Positions 23,917 to 29,537 of a DNA stretch of 64,000 nt are shown one piece after another. The stretch comes from Opitutaceae bacterium. GTDB lineage: Bacteria; Verrucomicrobiota; Verrucomicrobiia; Opitutales; Opitutaceae. The stretch spans positions 10,020 through 74,019 of the forward strand of contig JAHCAZ010000016.1 of assembly GCA_019634615.1 (NCBI GenBank), written 5' to 3'. The notes beneath the pieces were generated by a model, which saw nothing but the letters and a program-made list of their open reading frames with translations, had not been told where the DNA came from and did no database searches. Position numbers and translations under genes: made by a program. The number at the start of each line of letters is the position of its first letter. Position 1 is the first letter of the stretch.

Positions 23917-24818
23917 GCGCGGCCCCGCACCTGTTCACCCTCACCGGCAACCTGCTCGCGGAGCGCACGCTCGAGTTCGCCGACTGGCAGGTCGGCCGCA
24001 CCCAGCGGGCCGTGCGGGAGACCTTCCACACGCGCGGCAAGGGCGTGAACGTCTCGAACCTGCTCGCCCGGCTCGGCGCACCCACCACCGCGCTGATCTT
24101 CGCCGGCGGCGCCCCGGGGGCCGAGAGCGAGGCCTGGCTCCGGCGGCGCGGCATCGCCTACCAGGCCTTCGCCACCCAGGCGGCCTCGCGCACCGGCACG
24201 GTGATCTGGAGCGACCGCCAGGCGGAGACGACTTTCCTCGGACCCGACGTGCCGCCCGACGCCGCCGCGGTTTCCGCGTGCGCCACGTGGCTCGACACGC
24301 AGGCCGACAGGCAGGTCCTCGCGCTCTGCGGCAGCTTTCCGGGCTGGAACGAGGCGGCCTTCGACCCGCTCCGCGCCGTGCTCCGGCGCTGGGCGCAGCG
24401 CGGCGTGCTCGTGGCCGACGCCTATGGCCCGCCGCTCGGCTGGCTGGCCCAGTTGCCTCTCGCCCTCGTGAAGATCAACCGCCAGGAGTTCGACGCTTTC
24501 CGCCCGGGCGCCGGCGACATGGCGGCGCGGCTGCGCCAGGCCGGCGACGAACTCCCGGTGCAGGTCTGGATCGTCACCGACGGCCCCGGCTCGCTCTGGC
24601 TCGCCCTCCCGGGCGAAAGGCCCCGGGAGTTTCACCCGCCCGTGCTGCGCGAGGTGTCACCCACGGGCTCGGGCGACGTTTTCCTGGGAGCATTGCTGCA
24701 CGGCCGCTGGCACCTGGGCCTCGGCTGGCCGGAGGCGATCGCGTATGCCCTGCCCTTCGCCGCCGCCAACGCCGCGCACCCGGGTGTGGCGGATTTCGAG
24801 TTGCCGGTGACAAATTGA
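23913..24818 (+). CDS. PfkB family carbohydrate kinase (1-phosphofructokinase-like)
   Basis: It has an N-terminal LTGNLLAERT..GKGVNVS and the C-terminal PfkB signature SPTGSGDVFLGALL. ATG 23913 overlaps the MFS stop (ATGA). I trimmed it from the fused ORF 22287..24818. Confidence 0.75.
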   Translation: MSAAPHLFTLTGNLLAERTLEFADWQVGRTQRAVRETFHTRGKGVNVSNLLARLGAPTTALIFAGGAPGAESEAWLRRRGIAYQAFATQAASRTGTVIWSDRQAETTFLGPDVPPDAAAVSACATWLDTQADRQVLALCGSFPGWNEAAFDPLRAVLRRWAQRGVLVADAYGPPLGWLAQLPLALVKINRQEFDAFRPGAGDMAARLRQAGDELPVQVWIVTDGPGSLWLALPGERPREFHPPVLREVSPTGSGDVFLGALLHGRWHLGLGWPEAIAYALPFAAANAAHPGVADFELPVTN

Positions 24819-24820
24819 TA

Positions 24821-24887
24821 ACCGCGAAGGGCGGGAAGGTGCGCGAAGTTCCAACGGGCCTTCGCGTCTCTTCGCGCCCTTCGCGGT
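24821..24887. repeat. long imperfect hairpin, copy H3
   Basis: The arms are accgcgaagggcgggaaggtgcgcgaag (24821-24848) and cttcgcgtctcttcgcgcccttcgcggt (24860-24887), about 24/28 paired by hand count. It starts 3 nt after the pfkB-like stop. Confidence 0.8.
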
Positions 24888-24955
24888 GGGAAAATTCCGC
24901 CGCAAACGTGGACAACCCGCGAACCACGCTTACACTTTGCGGTCACTGACCGGCC

Positions 24956-25651
24956 ATGAACCGCACCCTCCTCATCATCGCTGGCGCGCTGCTCCTGGCC
25001 GGGGCGTTTTTCGGTTATCGCGCCTATGTGAAGCACAAGCAGGAATCCGCGCTTGCCGCGCAGGCGCTGGCGCGGGAGCAGGCGGAGCGCGACCGGTTGA
25101 CGGCGTTGGAGCGCCGCGCAGCCGCCGAAGCCGAGGCCCATCGCCTGGCGGAAGAGCAGGCCCGCCTCGCTGCGGCCGATTCGGCCCGGCGGCTGGAGGA
25201 GCTCCAGGCCGCGGAGGCCCGGGCCGCCGCGGAGCGCGCCGCCGCCGAGGCGACCCTCGCGCGGATGCGGGCCGAGGCTGATCGCCTCCGCGCCGAGAAG
25301 GAGGCCGCCCAGGGCGAGGCGCGCCGGCTGGCCGAGTTGCGCGAGCAGGAAGCCGCTGCCGCGCACGCGGCCCGGTTGGCCGCCCTGGAAAAGCTCCGCG
25401 CCCTCGAGCGGGAGGTGCAGGACAACGCCGCCCGGGAGGCGGCCCGCCTCGAAGCCCTGCGCCGGCAGGCAGAATTGGAAGCCCTTGCCTACCAGAAGGC
25501 CCGCCCGGCTGACCGGATCGTCTATCCACCCGACTACAAGGCGCGGGATCACCACAATCTCCGGGCGACCCTTGAGTGGGAGGCCTACCGTCAGGCCGGT
25601 GCCACCGTTCCGCCACTTCCAGAGCCAGAAACGACGCAAACCGAGAAATAA
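24956..25651 (+). CDS. membrane-anchored Ala/Glu/Arg-rich coiled-coil protein
   Basis: It has an N-terminal TM segment [17 protein letters not shown], followed by about 150 aa of heptad-like [18 protein letters not shown].. sequence. Long antisense ORFs here are attributed to low complexity. Confidence 0.5.
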
Positions 25652-25672
25652 ATCCTTGCTTTCACCGGCGCG

Positions 25673-25698
25673 AAACCGCTTTCTCTGCGGTTTTATTT
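25673..25698 (+). terminator. terminator-like hairpin abutting the rplU start
   Basis: The sequence is aaaccgc-tttctct-gcggttt followed by ttttattt. The ATG of rplU follows immediately at 25699. Confidence 0.45.
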
Positions 25699-26013
25699 AT
25701 GAAAGCCACTATCAAAACCCAAGGCCAACAGTTCACTGTGACCGAAGGTGATATCCTCATCGTCAACCGCTATCCGAACACGGAAGCCGGTGCCACCGTG
25801 GAGATTAAGGACGTGCTCACGGCCGGCGAAGGAACCAATTTCAAGATCGGCACCCCGACCCTCCCCGGCGCCGTCGTCTCGGCCAAGGTGCTCGAGAACA
25901 AGCGCGGCGACAAGGTCATCGTCTTCAAGAAAAAGAAGCGCAAGGGCATGGAGCGCAAGCGCGGCCACCGCCAGGAACTGTCCGTCATCAAGATCGAGTC
26001 CATCAAAGCCTAA
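25699..26013 (+). CDS. rplU: 50S ribosomal protein L21
   Basis: [46 protein letters not shown] matches L21. Confidence 0.95.
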
Positions 26014-26027
26014 GGAGAACCAACGTC

Positions 26028-26267
26028 ATGGCGCATAAAAAAGGTCAGGGAACATCCAGCAACGGACGCGAGAGCAAGTCGAAGCGTCTCGGCGTGAAAC
26101 TCTTCGGCGGCCAGTCCGTCATCGCCGGCAACATCATCGTCCGCCAGCGCGGCAGCAAGCTGCACGCCGGCAAGAACGTCGGCACCGGCCGCGATTGGAC
26201 GCTGTTCGCCCTCAAGGACGGCACGCTCGAGTTCGACAAGGCCCACCGCCGCGTGTCGGTCGTCTGA
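26028..26267 (+). CDS. rpmA: 50S ribosomal protein L27
   Basis: [48 protein letters not shown] matches L27. Confidence 0.95.
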
Positions 26268-26292
26268 GCGCCCCGCTCATTTTTTAGCTTTC

Positions 26293-26324
26293 AAACGCAG
26301 CCCAAACCGGGCTGCGTTTTTTTT
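26293..26324 (+). terminator. Rho-independent terminator of rplU-rpmA
   Basis: An 11-bp stem aaacgcagccc/gggctgcgttt has a 5-nt loop and runs into a stretch of 8 T. Confidence 0.85.
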
Positions 26325-26405
26325 GTCGGTCCATTGGACCGACAACCCTCCGTAGCCTAGGCGAAGGAGGGTCGCCCGCGTTGCGAGCACCGCCCTTCCC
26401 CCCCC

Positions 26406-26762
26406 ATGTCCGACCGCCTCACCGACCTCCGCCGCCAGCGCGCCGCGATCCAGCAGCATCTCGACTGGCTGGACCGCGAGATCGCCGCCGCACAGTCGGT
26501 TCAGGCAACGACACCGGCTTCACCCGCGCCCGTTCCCCTTTCTCCCCCCGTCGCCCCGATCCCGCCAGATCCTGCTGCCGCCCTGCCCGACCTCGGCCAG
26601 CCCGATCCCGTCAACGCCGCCCGACAGGCGAAAAAGGGCTGCCTGCTCGCCCTCGCCGTCGCGCTCGTGATCTTTTTCGGGACTGTCTTCGCCATATTCT
26701 TCTTCGCCTACGGCGACCGCCCCTGGCTGTTCATGGATCGCAGCGAGGCCGTGCAGCCCTGA
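26406..26762 (+). CDS. small tail-anchored membrane protein, hypothetical
   Basis: Third-position GC is high in this frame. The layout is an N-terminal helix LTDLRRQRAAIQQHLDWLDREIAAAQ, a Pro-rich linker, and a single C-terminal TM segment CLLALAVALVIFFGTVFAIFFFA. Confidence 0.5.
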   Translation: MSDRLTDLRRQRAAIQQHLDWLDREIAAAQSVQATTPASPAPVPLSPPVAPIPPDPAAALPDLGQPDPVNAARQAKKGCLLALAVALVIFFGTVFAIFFFAYGDRPWLFMDRSEAVQP

Positions 26763-26831
26763 GTTGGTTGCAGCGCGGTTCGGAAAATTCCCGCGAACCG
26801 ATTTCTCAAGTCGTGGTCTAGCGCCGCGAAC

Positions 26832-27248
26832 TTGAACACCGCCTCTTCGTTCACACCGGCAGATCCTGCTCCGTCCTGGGAGGACGTGGCGGCGATTTAC
26901 CGGCGCGTCTGCCTGCTGCGCTACAGCGGCCGGGCTGCGGAAGCGGCGCGCCTCGAGTCCGGCGACCTCGCGCGCTCGTTGCGGCAGGTAGCGGCTCCGG
27001 CGGGCGAAACCGCCGCCTTTGTCACCTTTCGCGACGGGCTCTTTGAACTCGAGGCCGAGCGCGTGCGCCACGCCCATGCCGTGGCCGAACTGCTCGCCCC
27101 GCTGCTGCTCGAGCGCCTGGGCCGCATACCCGATCCCGCCAAACCCCAACGCCCGCCGCCAGCGCCGTCTACCGTCCGCGGCCCGGTCGATATCGCCGAC
27201 ATGATCGACACCATGCTCGCCCAGCAAACCGAGCTGCCGGGCCGTTGA
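26832..27248 (+). CDS. small soluble hypothetical protein upstream of the actin-like gene
   Basis: Third-position GC is high. It uses a TTG start, with an in-frame GTG alternative at 26886. Its stop overlaps an in-frame TTG of the downstream actin-like ORF. Confidence 0.45.
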   Translation: MNTASSFTPADPAPSWEDVAAIYRRVCLLRYSGRAAEAARLESGDLARSLRQVAAPAGETAAFVTFRDGLFELEAERVRHAHAVAELLAPLLLERLGRIPDPAKPQRPPPAPSTVRGPVDIADMIDTMLAQQTELPGR

Positions 27249-27301
27249 CCGGCCCCCGTCCCTTCCAGCGTCCCTGCGTCCCAACCCTCCACACCACTGC
27301 C

Positions 27302-28465
27302 ATGACTGCCACCACCCTCGAAAAAGCTCCCGCCTCCACGCCCACCGTCCCCAGCGCCGCCGTGCCGGCCAACACCCGCCCGCCGTCCGCCTCGCGCCCG
27401 GCCCAGAAAACCGTCCTTGTCGGCCTCGACCTCGGGACGAACAAATCGTGCGTCCTCGCCGGGCCCGCCGGCGGCAGCGACATCACCGTGAGCAAGGTGA
27501 TCCCGACCTGTGTCGGCTACGTGAAGGAAGGAATCGTCGACGGCATCATCGCCGGCAACGCGTCCATCCTGTATGGCGAGGACGCCCTGCAGAACCGCCT
27601 GCACGTCAACCTCGTGACCCCGCTCGCCCAGGGCGTCATCGCCCAGCCCGCCGCGGCGCGGGATTTCCTGCTGCACATCCGCACGCTGGCGGATCCCTCG
27701 GGTCAGGCGGACATCCGGGCCGTCATCGGCATCCCGGCCAACGCCGACGAACCCGCGCGTGAGGAGATCCGCCGCACCGCGGTCGGCATTTTCAGCCGCG
27801 TGCTCCTGATCCCCGAGCCTTTTCTCGCCGCCTTGGGTTACCGCGACGCCTCCCGCGTCGGCCAGCCCGGCTACATCGACCCGGTGGTCAACTCCCTCTT
27901 CATCGACATCGGGGGCGGCACGACGGATCTCTGTCTCGTGCAGGGATATTTCCCGGGGCGCGACGACCAGGTCTGCATCCCGTTCGCCGGCGACGCGATC
28001 GACCAGGCCATGGAGGCCGAACTGGCCCGGACCTACCCGAACAACGGCCTCACCCGCCACACGATCCGCGAGCTCAAGGAAACCCACGCCTACGTGGGCC
28101 CCTCGCGGCGGCCGCTCGACGTGAAGGTCGTCATCGGCGGCAAGGCGCACGTGCTCGAGCTGGCCGACGTCATCGGCCACGCCTGCAACACGCTGATCGA
28201 CCGGCTCTATCCCGCGCTCACTAGCCTGATCGCCCGCGCGTCGTCGGACTCCGTGGTCACGCTGCTGCAGAACATCATCGTCACCGGCGGCGGTTCGCAG
28301 ATCAAGGGGATCGACACGGTCCTTCAGAAGCGGCTGGCCGACGATGGGTACGAGGCGCCGAAAGTCCGCCTCGCCGGCCAGGATTTCAAACGCTACGTCG
28401 CCATCGGCGCCCTCAAGGCGGCCCGCGCCGCCCGCGAGAACCAGTGGCAGACGCTGCTCAGCTGA
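27302..28465 (+). CDS. actin-like ATPase (MamK/MreB-like bacterial actin)
   Basis: The motifs LVGLDLGTNKSCV (phosphate 1), IPEPFLAALGY, SLFIDIGGGTTDLCLV (phosphate 2) and IIVTGGGSQIKGI (adenosine) occur in the order and spacing of bacterial actins. I placed the start at ATG 27302, but the ORF is open from TTG 27245. Confidence 0.8.
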   Translation: MTATTLEKAPASTPTVPSAAVPANTRPPSASRPAQKTVLVGLDLGTNKSCVLAGPAGGSDITVSKVIPTCVGYVKEGIVDGIIAGNASILYGEDALQNRLHVNLVTPLAQGVIAQPAAARDFLLHIRTLADPSGQADIRAVIGIPANADEPAREEIRRTAVGIFSRVLLIPEPFLAALGYRDASRVGQPGYIDPVVNSLFIDIGGGTTDLCLVQGYFPGRDDQVCIPFAGDAIDQAMEAELARTYPNNGLTRHTIRELKETHAYVGPSRRPLDVKVVIGGKAHVLELADVIGHACNTLIDRLYPALTSLIARASSDSVVTLLQNIIVTGGGSQIKGIDTVLQKRLADDGYEAPKVRLAGQDFKRYVAIGALKAARAARENQWQTLLS

Positions 28466-29537
28466 TCGCCGGGTAGCTGCCCATCCACTTCACCATCGGG
28501 CAGAATTTCCGCAGCTCGGCGAGGGCGGCCTTCATGTTCGCGTCCTCGTAGTGGCCGGTGACGTCGATGAAGAAATAATAGTCCCACGGGCGCTTCTTGC
28601 TCGGGCGCGACTCGACCTTGGAGAGGTTGATGCCGCGCTCGGCCAGCGGCATCAGCATGCGCAGCAGCGCGCCGGAGTGCGACGCGGCCTCGTCGCCGAG
28701 GGAGACGAGGAAGCTCGTGATGTCCTTGCCGTTGCCCACCGGGCCGGACGGCTGGCGGCCGAGGACGAAGAAGCGCGTGGTGTTGTCGGCCTTGTCCTGG
28801 ATGTTCTTCACCAGCACCGGCACGCCGTAATGCTGCGCAGCCAGTTCACCGGCCACGGCCGCGGCACCGGGCTCGTCGTGGGCGATCTGCACGGCGCGGG
28901 AGGTGCTCGACGCCTCGACCAGCTGGGCATGCGGGAGATGCCGCTGCAGCCAGTGGCGGCACTGCGCCAGGGCCTGATCCTTGGAGTAAACCTTCGTGAT
29001 CTGCTCCAGCGGGAACTTCGAGATCAGGGCGTGCGTGATCTCGGTGTAGATCTGGGCGACGATCTTGAGGTCGCTCTCGACAAAGCTGTCCAGCGTCTCG
29101 CGCACCGAGCCCTCGGTCGAGTTCTCGATCGGGATGACCGCGTAATCGGTCTCGCCCTTCTCCACCGCGGTGAAGATGTCGCTGATCGTGGCCATCGCGT
29201 GGTAATCCACGCTGGCGCCGAACTTCTTCATCGCCGCCGCATGCGTGTTGCTGGCCTCAGGTCCGAGGTAGGCGATGAGCAGGGGCTTCTCCAGGGCGAT
29301 GGCCGCCGACATGATCTCGCGGTAGATCGCCTTCAGCGCCTCCTGCTTGATGGGACCCTGGTTCTGCGCGGTGACCTTGCGGAGGACGGCGTCCTCACGC
29401 TCGGCCACGTAGATCTGGCCGCCCTGGCCCCGCTTCACCTTGCCGATCTCAGCCGCGAGCGCGAGGCGCTCGTTCAGGAGGCTGACCAATTGGCGGTCGA
29501 TCGCGTCGATCTTTTCGCGGATGGGGCCGAGGTCCAT
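28458..29537 (-). CDS. pheA: bifunctional chorismate mutase/prephenate dehydratase
   Basis: It has an N-terminal CM domain IREKIDAIDRQLVSLLNERLALAAEIGKVK, then a PDT domain IAYLGPEASNTH..IPIENSTEGSV, and a C-terminal ACT-like region. Confidence 0.9.
   Translation of the reverse strand: MDLGPIREKIDAIDRQLVSLLNERLALAAEIGKVKRGQGGQIYVAEREDAVLRKVTAQNQGPIKQEALKAIYREIMSAAIALEKPLLIAYLGPEASNTHAAAMKKFGASVDYHAMATISDIFTAVEKGETDYAVIPIENSTEGSVRETLDSFVESDLKIVAQIYTEITHALISKFPLEQITKVYSKDQALAQCRHWLQRHLPHAQLVEASSTSRAVQIAHDEPGAAAVAGELAAQHYGVPVLVKNIQDKADNTTRFFVLGRQPSGPVGNGKDITSFLVSLGDEAASHSGALLRMLMPLAERGINLSKVESRPSKKRPWDYYFFIDVTGHYEDANMKAALAELRKFCPMVKWMGSYPAIS

Follow-up and report, generated by a model that had tools for sequence, protein, structure and literature searches.

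A BeeR-family actin of an Opitutaceae bacterium and its co-inherited upstream neighbour, a candidate BeeR partner

We analysed a 64,000-nt stretch (hereafter the window) of the 86.6-kb contig JAHCAZ010000016.1 from an Opitutaceae metagenome-assembled genome (MAG), in which three consecutive open reading frames (ORFs) lie on the forward strand: ORF-A (26406-26762, 118 aa), ORF-B (26832-27248, 138 aa from a TTG start) and an actin-like gene that ends at 28465 and encodes 387 aa from an ATG at 27302 or 406 aa from a TTG at 27245. The actin is, judged by its sequence, an ortholog of BeeR, an actin of Verrucomicrobiota whose ATP-dependent assembly yields a rigid, hollow, right-handed tube of three strands (Bergeron et al., PNAS 2025, PMC11929497), and it is neither MreB nor MamK. 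The gene of ORF-B accompanies beeR almost without exception through genome rearrangements, and its product carries a conserved C-terminal helix on a variable linker behind a helical bundle. We consider it probable that BeeR and the 138-aa protein encoded directly upstream constitute a two-gene module, in which the C-terminal helix of the partner would dock onto BeeR. BeeR itself belongs to an already known family; ORF-B is a plausible and apparently unreported partner of it. ORF-A is a neighbour of this module, linked to rpmA, and not a member.

The identity of the actin is indicated by family profiles and solved structures alike. The 387-aa protein scored 582.5 bits on the NCBIfam model NF053558 (BeeR family actin-like protein), above the equivalog cutoff of 530, and its residues 38-386 matched all 349 model positions. 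The best match among solved structures was the BeeR filament of Opitutus terrae (PDB 8r2n), aligned end to end with 636 bits (E = 1.9e-190), followed by MamK (5jyg, E = 2.5e-33; 5ljv, ~1e-33) and then MreB (~1e-10). Identity to O. terrae BeeR (UniProt B1ZZL4) was 74% overall and 76% over the core. On the MamK model NF040964 the protein reached 211.4 bits, below the cutoff of 400, and on the MreB models TIGR00904 and NF010539 it reached 44.6 and 46.4 bits, below the respective cutoffs of 365.75 and 293. Among more generic models, Pfam MreB_Mbl was matched above its gathering score (62 bits), Pfam ParM_N below threshold (E = 0.018) and a PHROG 'partition protein' weakly (E = 3.4e-7). An initial annotation, made from the letters of the window without database searches, had set this actin apart from MreB, which the profile scores bear out. 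It had also regarded the gene as an undescribed orphan actin, a view that no longer holds, as the filament structure of BeeR was published in 2025 (PMC11929497); the authors of that study describe the function of BeeR as not known and its expression and function as uninvestigated.

The residues that build the BeeR tube are largely retained in the window protein. Eight of the 12 positions named in the structural paper for cross-strand contacts are identical (E149, E153, R157, R242, N246, I277, L284 and L385), and in the minor cross-strand contact T307 is replaced by Ser and Q310 by Ala. Arg 252 and Asn 380 of the paper are His 252 and Gln 380 in UniProt B1ZZL4 (P0104), where the nearest such residues are R255 and N379, both conserved in window BeeR, which points to slight misnumbering in PMC11929497 or to an offset of the construct used there. 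Ahead of the first NF053558 position, residues 1-37 (27302-27412) form the Pro/Ala/Ser/Thr-rich N-terminal extension that the initial annotation had also pointed out. Judging from its composition, this segment would correspond to the disordered extension of the family. BeeR is kept from bundling by its disordered N-terminal tail, and a non-conserved extension of 30-50 aa is the hallmark of the family (PMC11929497). BeeR proteins encoded in other genomic contexts likewise scored above the NF053558 cutoff and had N-terminal extensions of 28-42 aa. The ATG at 27302 is the likely start of the window gene, giving 387 aa with an extension of ~37 aa and matching the NCBI model P0023, a protein 100% identical to the 387-aa actin and named 'rod shape-determining protein [Opitutaceae bacterium]'. 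Such names are not confined to this record: NCBI and JGI systematically label BeeR orthologs 'rod shape-determining protein (MreB)' despite failed MreB cutoffs. Cultured Opitutaceae are cocci (PMC5303756), and the MreB label for BeeR in these coccoid bacteria is a widespread misannotation.

The gene of ORF-B travels with beeR. Scanning one genome per species, we retained the best 80 loci, in which BeeR was 64-93% identical to the window protein; the top 80 genome matches and the top 120 protein matches were all at least 64-72% identical to it. Nearly all of these loci were labelled Opitutaceae, Opitutales or Verrucomicrobiota, with one labelled Gammaproteobacteria (L024) and one 'uncultured bacterium' (L038). 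With a profile built from ORF-B, the gene immediately preceding beeR, in the same orientation, was recognised as a homolog at 76 of the 80 loci, or 76 of the 77 that were testable; three of the four loci without it have less than 300 nt of upstream DNA. The sole testable exception, L048 (CAUJJL010000148.1, 2380-2752), has beeR 372 nt after rpmA with neither ORF-A nor ORF-B in between. The gap between ORF-B and beeR, measured to the tblastn start of BeeR, ranged from -3 to 157 nt at the 76 loci. In reverse look-ups starting from ORF-B homologs, the next gene encoded a 382-392-aa protein with MreB_Mbl/Actin Pfam matches in all seven cases, 12-55 nt downstream, and the four of these actins that were scored all exceeded the BeeR cutoff. 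The proposal of the initial annotation that a chromosomal non-MreB actin is encoded here beside a small dedicated partner is upheld by this co-inheritance as far as the 138-aa ORF is concerned.

Moreover, the two genes stay together where their surroundings change. With the flanking genes tagged by homology, the pair was found in at least five neighbourhoods: between rpmA and pheA, as in the window; between rpmA and mscS, as in O. terrae; between an outer-membrane-protein-like ORF and a permease-like ORF, both so labelled from sequence appearance only; between a GGDEF-HD gene and hsp90; and beside a gene for a peptidase of family M28 or M3, with various genes downstream (hsp90 or PIN/VapB). 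Further neighbourhoods of the pair exist in which the flanking genes are without assignment. In a neighbour-joining tree of BeeR, the contexts other than rpmA fell into at least three separate clades, and it follows that the pair has been relocated at least three times, both genes moving together each time. The ORF-B family comprises 466 clusters at 50% identity, 302 of them at E <= 1e-10; its members are small proteins only, with no Pfam domain, and those with labels all belong to Opitutae, Opitutaceae or Lacunisphaera.

The organism of the BeeR structure shares this arrangement. In O. terrae PB90-1 (L081, CP001032.1, 4949-7161), the upstream order rplU-rpmA-ORF-A-ORF-B-beeR is that of the window, with ORF-A as B1ZZL6 / ACB76419.1 and BeeR as B1ZZL4. 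Its ORF-B is a 'transcriptional regulator' of 123 aa in GenBank (B1ZZL5 / ACB76418.1) and a 'hypothetical protein' of 153 aa in RefSeq (WP_044891812.1). The two BeeR orthologs thus resemble each other in the disordered N-terminal extension, in most cross-strand contacts and in upstream gene order, and they differ in the downstream gene (mscS in O. terrae, pheA in the window) and in the two substitutions at positions 307 and 310. The locus labelled Gammaproteobacteria (L024, JADZEE010000115.1, from a 'Gammaproteobacteria bacterium' MAG) has a typical Opitutaceae rplU-rpmA-ORF-A ... ORF-B-beeR-pheA arrangement with a BeeR 72% identical to that of the window, and is probably a mis-binned contig.

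In the window, the stop codon of ORF-B (27246-27248) overlaps the in-frame TTG at 27245 of the actin ORF, and a C-rich spacer of 53 nt (27249-27301) lies between ORF-B and the ATG of beeR. The terminator scan detected no terminator between the two genes, and the spacer had a minimum free energy of -3.3 kcal/mol (z = +1.0). With neither a terminator nor a stable structure in the spacer, the two genes are probably co-transcribed. No centromere-like or operator-like iterated repeats were found around ORF-B and beeR.

The layout of the ORF-B protein was examined by AlphaFold2 modelling with 17 homologs and by reading conservation over 77 family members. In the model, residues 16-97 (26877-27122) fold into a three-helix bundle (helices 16-31, 35-53 and 61-97; block pLDDT ~86-98), and this region holds an invariant RRxCLLR as well as the motif ExxRVxxAxxLAELLxP. 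The bundle is followed by a predicted disordered, Pro/Ala-rich linker (residues 98-120, 27123-27191), with pLDDT <50 at residues 103-117, which is highly variable in length and sequence within the family; a rough regular expression put the stretch separating the helix-3 and C-terminal motifs at a median of 37 and a maximum of 111 residues. Residues 121-131 (IADMIDTMLAQ, 27192-27224) are modelled as an amphipathic helix, which we propose as the BeeR-docking peptide. The pattern I-A-D-[F/L/M]-[I/L]-D-x-M-[L/I]-x-Q-[E/D] occurs in 76 of the 77 family members, 69 of them counted by a strict regular expression and 7 more, with G or A at position 3, read by eye. Hydrophobic residues occupy positions i, i+3, i+4, i+7 and i+8 of the motif, with acidic residues between them, and the net charge of the whole protein is -2. 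The start of ORF-B differs by source, being the TTG at 26832 at NCBI (138 aa) and a codon 18 codons downstream in other gene models (120 aa). This start is uncertain; conservation upstream of the 120-aa start and the modelled helix 1 favour the 138-aa form.

ORF-B matched no Pfam or NCBIfam family, with nothing meaningful even at E <= 1 and no DNA-binding family among the matches, and it matched no PADLOC or PHROG family. In the PDB, no relative was detected by sequence profile (best E = 0.74) or by fold with Foldseek (best E = 1.9). A resemblance of the bundle to FliT and to MIT domains was weak and concerned generic helical bundles only, and was set aside. ORF-B is not known to resemble the described partners of MamK (MamJ and MamY).

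Other actins have partners with a comparable layout. The conserved C-terminal helix of arcadin-2, a protein encoded next to crenactin, binds the hydrophobic groove that lies between subdomains IA and IIA, and the filament is thereby depolymerised (Izore et al., eLife 2016, PMC5173319); the C-terminal helix of ParR enters the hydrophobic groove of ParM (ParM:ParR 4A62, cited in PMC5173319). By adjacency to the actin gene and by its conserved helix, ORF-B would fit this functional class of C-terminal-helix actin modulators, the arcadin-2/ParR type, as an analogue and not a homolog. As in the arcade cluster of Pyrobaculum, a small gene stands beside the actin gene, and in ORF-B, too, a folded domain precedes the conserved helix at the C-terminus. 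In contrast to this likeness of layout, ORF-B showed no sequence or fold homology to arcadin-2 in the PDB, which includes the arcadin-2 peptide complex. Crenactin is archaeal and forms double-stranded filaments, whereas BeeR is verrucomicrobial and three-stranded, and the docking of ORF-B on BeeR is something that we only infer. The ParM-ParR-parC system likewise combines a bacterial actin with a small dedicated adaptor that uses a C-terminal helix. Unlike that system, the window locus is chromosomal and has no parC-like iterated repeats, and no BeeR homolog was found among the 72,556 plasmids searched. ParR/AlfB-type DNA-binding adaptors are generally encoded downstream of their actin; the gene of ORF-B lies upstream, and its acidic product lacks a ribbon-helix-helix or any other DNA-binding signature.

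We propose that the C-terminal helix of ORF-B, IADxIDxMLxQ, would dock onto BeeR from its flexible linker, with the IA/IIA hydrophobic groove as the most likely site. The three-helix bundle could then act as an adaptor that links the filaments to another component. Alternatively, ORF-B may be a sequestering, capping or depolymerising factor, regulating how this very stable polymer assembles and turns over. A cellular modulator of BeeR is plausible because no depolymerisation of the filaments was seen within ~12 h in vitro (bioRxiv 10.1101/2023.11.07.565980). The ORF-B motif also loosely resembles the conserved VKEGIVDGIIAG segment of BeeR in subdomain IB, taken as the D-loop equivalent; this likeness is speculative, and it would fit competition for the groove, as between arcadin-2 and the D-loop of crenactin. 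The more specific claim, that ORF-B is the founder of an undescribed BeeR-dedicated family, seen so far in Opitutaceae only, with its helix in the BeeR groove and with a role in controlling assembly or disassembly of the tube or in coupling the tube, by way of the bundle, to a cellular target, we regard as evenly balanced between holding and failing.

Several points weigh against a dedicated partner. Purified BeeR polymerises by itself (PMC11929497), so a partner is not needed for assembly, and the exceptional locus L048 indicates that the partner can be lost or encoded elsewhere. The modelled helical domain of ORF-B resembles no known adaptor or regulator fold. All sampled loci come from one family-level lineage, Opitutaceae/Opitutales, and tight linkage by itself would also suit a regulatory or an unrelated co-expressed function. 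In addition, both the site at which ORF-B would bind BeeR and the direction of its effect are what we purely infer. Gene neighbours, genomic context, operon, locus or an upstream partner are nowhere mentioned in the BeeR paper (PMC11929497) or its preprint, and no later papers on BeeR partners or function were found in the literature searched.

Among other explanations of the locus, ORF-B might be a transcriptional regulator of beeR instead of a filament-binding partner. Its O. terrae homolog bears that name in GenBank, and a small helical protein encoded directly upstream of its putative target, with the conserved basic patch RRxCLLR, could be taken for one. RefSeq, however, has renamed the homolog 'hypothetical protein', and the Pfam and NCBIfam searches yielded no helix-turn-helix (HTH) or DNA-binding family even at E <= 1. 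The modelled helices, of 16, 19 and 37 residues, are unlike those of an HTH, and the protein is net acidic. Conservation is highest in the C-terminal peptide, which is acidic-hydrophobic and sits on a disordered tether as protein-docking motifs typically do, and no conserved operator-like repeats occur upstream of ORF-B or beeR; a regulator is in our judgement unlikely. Slightly less likely again is that ORF-B and beeR are linked only for co-expression or by descent, without direct physical or functional coupling. All sampled genomes being Opitutaceae, shared ancestry could partly explain the linkage, and L048 has no ORF-B; yet the pair remained intact through at least three independent relocations in which all other neighbours changed, ORF-B was never without beeR in the seven independent look-ups, and the spacing was always short. 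Far less probable than either is that the actin is MreB acting as a rod-shape determinant, MamK, or a segregation actin of the ParM/Alp type. The names given by NCBI and JGI and the MreB_Mbl match point to MreB, MamK is the closest characterised family after BeeR, and the weak PHROG match would suit a partition protein. Against these stand the family scores given above, far below the MreB cutoffs and about half that of MamK. Neither mreC, mreD, rodA and pbp2 nor magnetosome genes are present among the neighbours (PfkB, a coiled-coil protein, L21, L27, ORF-A, ORF-B, PheA, ScpB and IlvD), the cultured relatives are cocci, and for a segregation system the centromere-like repeats, the plasmid homologs and an adaptor of the ParR/AlfB kind are all missing from what was searched. 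The filament architecture of MamK also differs from that of BeeR (PMC11929497).

The remaining alternative to the two-gene module enlarges it to three genes, with BeeR, the 138-aa protein as adaptor and the 118-aa tail-anchored ORF-A protein as membrane tether, as the initial annotation had envisaged. ORF-A does directly precede ORF-B in the window, in O. terrae and at 45 of the 80 BeeR loci, and its product is a conserved tail-anchored protein whose cytoplasmic helix is also conserved; at loci that separate the genes, it could act in trans. In the family alignment, ORF-A has the N-terminal helix DRLxELRRQRALxxxHLxWLDREIA, a Pro-rich linker and RRGC followed by a transmembrane tail, and it matched no Pfam or NCBIfam family. 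Its gene follows rpmA, however, and not beeR. All 45 loci are in the rpmA context, no relocated ORF-B-beeR pair has ORF-A, and seven rpmA-context loci are missing it while keeping the pair, with either ORF-B or unrelated DNA directly after rpmA. Scanning metagenomes with ORF-A as the anchor gave a set of 80 loci (L086-L165), in which rpmA was directly upstream in all 68 with enough upstream DNA. ORF-B was downstream in 18 of the 80 and absent from 38 despite at least 900 nt of downstream DNA, 27 of the latter also having no BeeR within at least 2.2 kb. Two such loci without the pair, L087 (PfkB, coiled-coil protein, rplU, rpmA, ORF-A, convergent pheA and, further on, ilvD) and L127 (rpmA, ORF-A, convergent pheA and ilvD), keep the core gene order of the window minus the 1.7-kb ORF-B-beeR segment. 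Further, in L109, L121, L127, L135 and L138 a gap of 24-26 nt without a terminator separates the rpmA stop from the start of ORF-A, suggesting that in these lineages it is co-transcribed with the ribosomal-protein genes. From these sequence comparisons, ORF-A appears to be an uncharacterised tail-anchored family of the rplU-rpmA locus whose place beside the actin pair is, on this evidence, incidental, and the three-gene module is about as doubtful as a regulatory ORF-B.

Each of the three ORFs is a real and conserved gene that evolves under purifying selection. G+C content at third codon positions (GC3) was 0.82 for ORF-A and 0.80 for ORF-B, within a range of 0.80-0.91 for all three, and dN/dS against the closest relative, L001, was 0.29 for ORF-A, 0.19 for ORF-B and 0.06 for the actin; it is on codon-position G+C and dN/dS that we take the ORFs as coding. 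Homologs of the two small ORFs occur in many genomes, in agreement with the initial annotation, which had judged both to be coding. Its ORF positions, actin-fold motifs, TTG overlap, 8-bp overlap with pheA and upstream L21 and L27 genes were likewise reproduced. Its description of the small ORFs as unannotated needs correction, as NCBI lists ORF-A as MBX3750366.1 and ORF-B as MBX3750367.1, both 'hypothetical protein'. By Pfam searches of the window ORFs, the genes for L21 and L27 lie upstream of ORF-A, and scpB and ilvD lie beyond pheA. The pheA gene (28458-29537, reverse strand; chorismate mutase / prephenate dehydratase; Pfam CM_2, PDT and ACT) is convergent with beeR, overlaps it by 8 bp and forms the downstream boundary, outside the module. 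A phmmer search found no second actin-like ORF within the 64-kb window. On the reverse strand, two antisense ORFs rich in Arg, Gly and Ala (26520-27284, 254 aa; 26921-28180, 419 aa) run across ORF-A, ORF-B and beeR; rather than genes, both appear to be spurious open frames of the sort common in DNA of ~68% G+C.

The upstream boundary, also outside the module, is set by two tandem intrinsic terminators on the forward strand at the end of the rplU-rpmA transcript (26265-26319). The terminator scan placed their stems at 26265-26279 and 26293-26319 (11 bp, 7 G-C), each followed by a T run, and the region folded far better than chance (z = -4.2; 0 of 200 shuffles as stable). A stem-loop with a T run also follows rpmA in most of the related rpmA-ORF-A spacers that were printed, with differing stem sequences. 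These twin terminators are a real transcript boundary and separate ORF-A from rpmA in the window. The hairpin at 26776-26800, which the initial annotation had seen as separating ORF-A from the other two genes, does exist as a 7-bp stem, but it is not significant as a separator: the spacer gave z = -1.0, 29 of 200 shuffles folded at least as well, and we rejected it as a terminator. No Rfam family was found in 24500-29000.

Downstream of the terminators, the rpmA-ORF-A spacer contains two more conserved elements (26320-26375): a perfect 11-bp palindrome, TTGTCGGTCCA-t-TGGACCGACAA (26323-26345), present in a single copy in the window, and a hairpin, CCCTCCG-AGCC...GGCG-AAGGAGGG (26345-26372), whose internal loop is symmetric (GAA/GAA). 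The stretch with both elements is near-identical in the window, L001, L003 and L004, although identity in the adjoining ORF-A drops to ~50% for L003 and L004. Of 115 rpmA-ORF-A spacers, 12 contain the hairpin, distant ones included, and it shows one apparent compensatory change from C-G to T-A, read by eye; the spacer elements were seen in the window, L001, L003, L004, L005, L021, L097, L098, L105, L117, L150 and L155. They may be cis-regulatory for ORF-A. Between the PfkB-family kinase gene and rplU, a forward-strand gene (24956-25651) encodes a protein of 231 aa that has a hydrophobic segment at its N-terminus and a long region rich in Ala, Glu and Arg, probably a coiled coil. Its position is kept in many relatives, including O. 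terrae (187 aa); it matched no Pfam family, a weak match to a ZipA model (E = 0.006) being the only one.

These results correct the MreB annotation of BeeR and drop the tail-anchored ORF-A from the candidate module, which saves effort on a gene of the ribosomal-protein locus. As a near-exceptionless companion of beeR through rearrangements, with the layout of a groove binder, ORF-B offers a route to the interaction partners and the function of BeeR. The link can be approached in O. terrae, the organism of the BeeR structure, with B1ZZL5 / WP_044891812.1 and B1ZZL4, and L048, an exception provided by nature, could reveal if the partner can be dispensed with or has its gene elsewhere. If ORF-B is indeed a BeeR-dedicated partner family, it would provide the first experimental handle on the role of BeeR filaments in coccoid bacteria.

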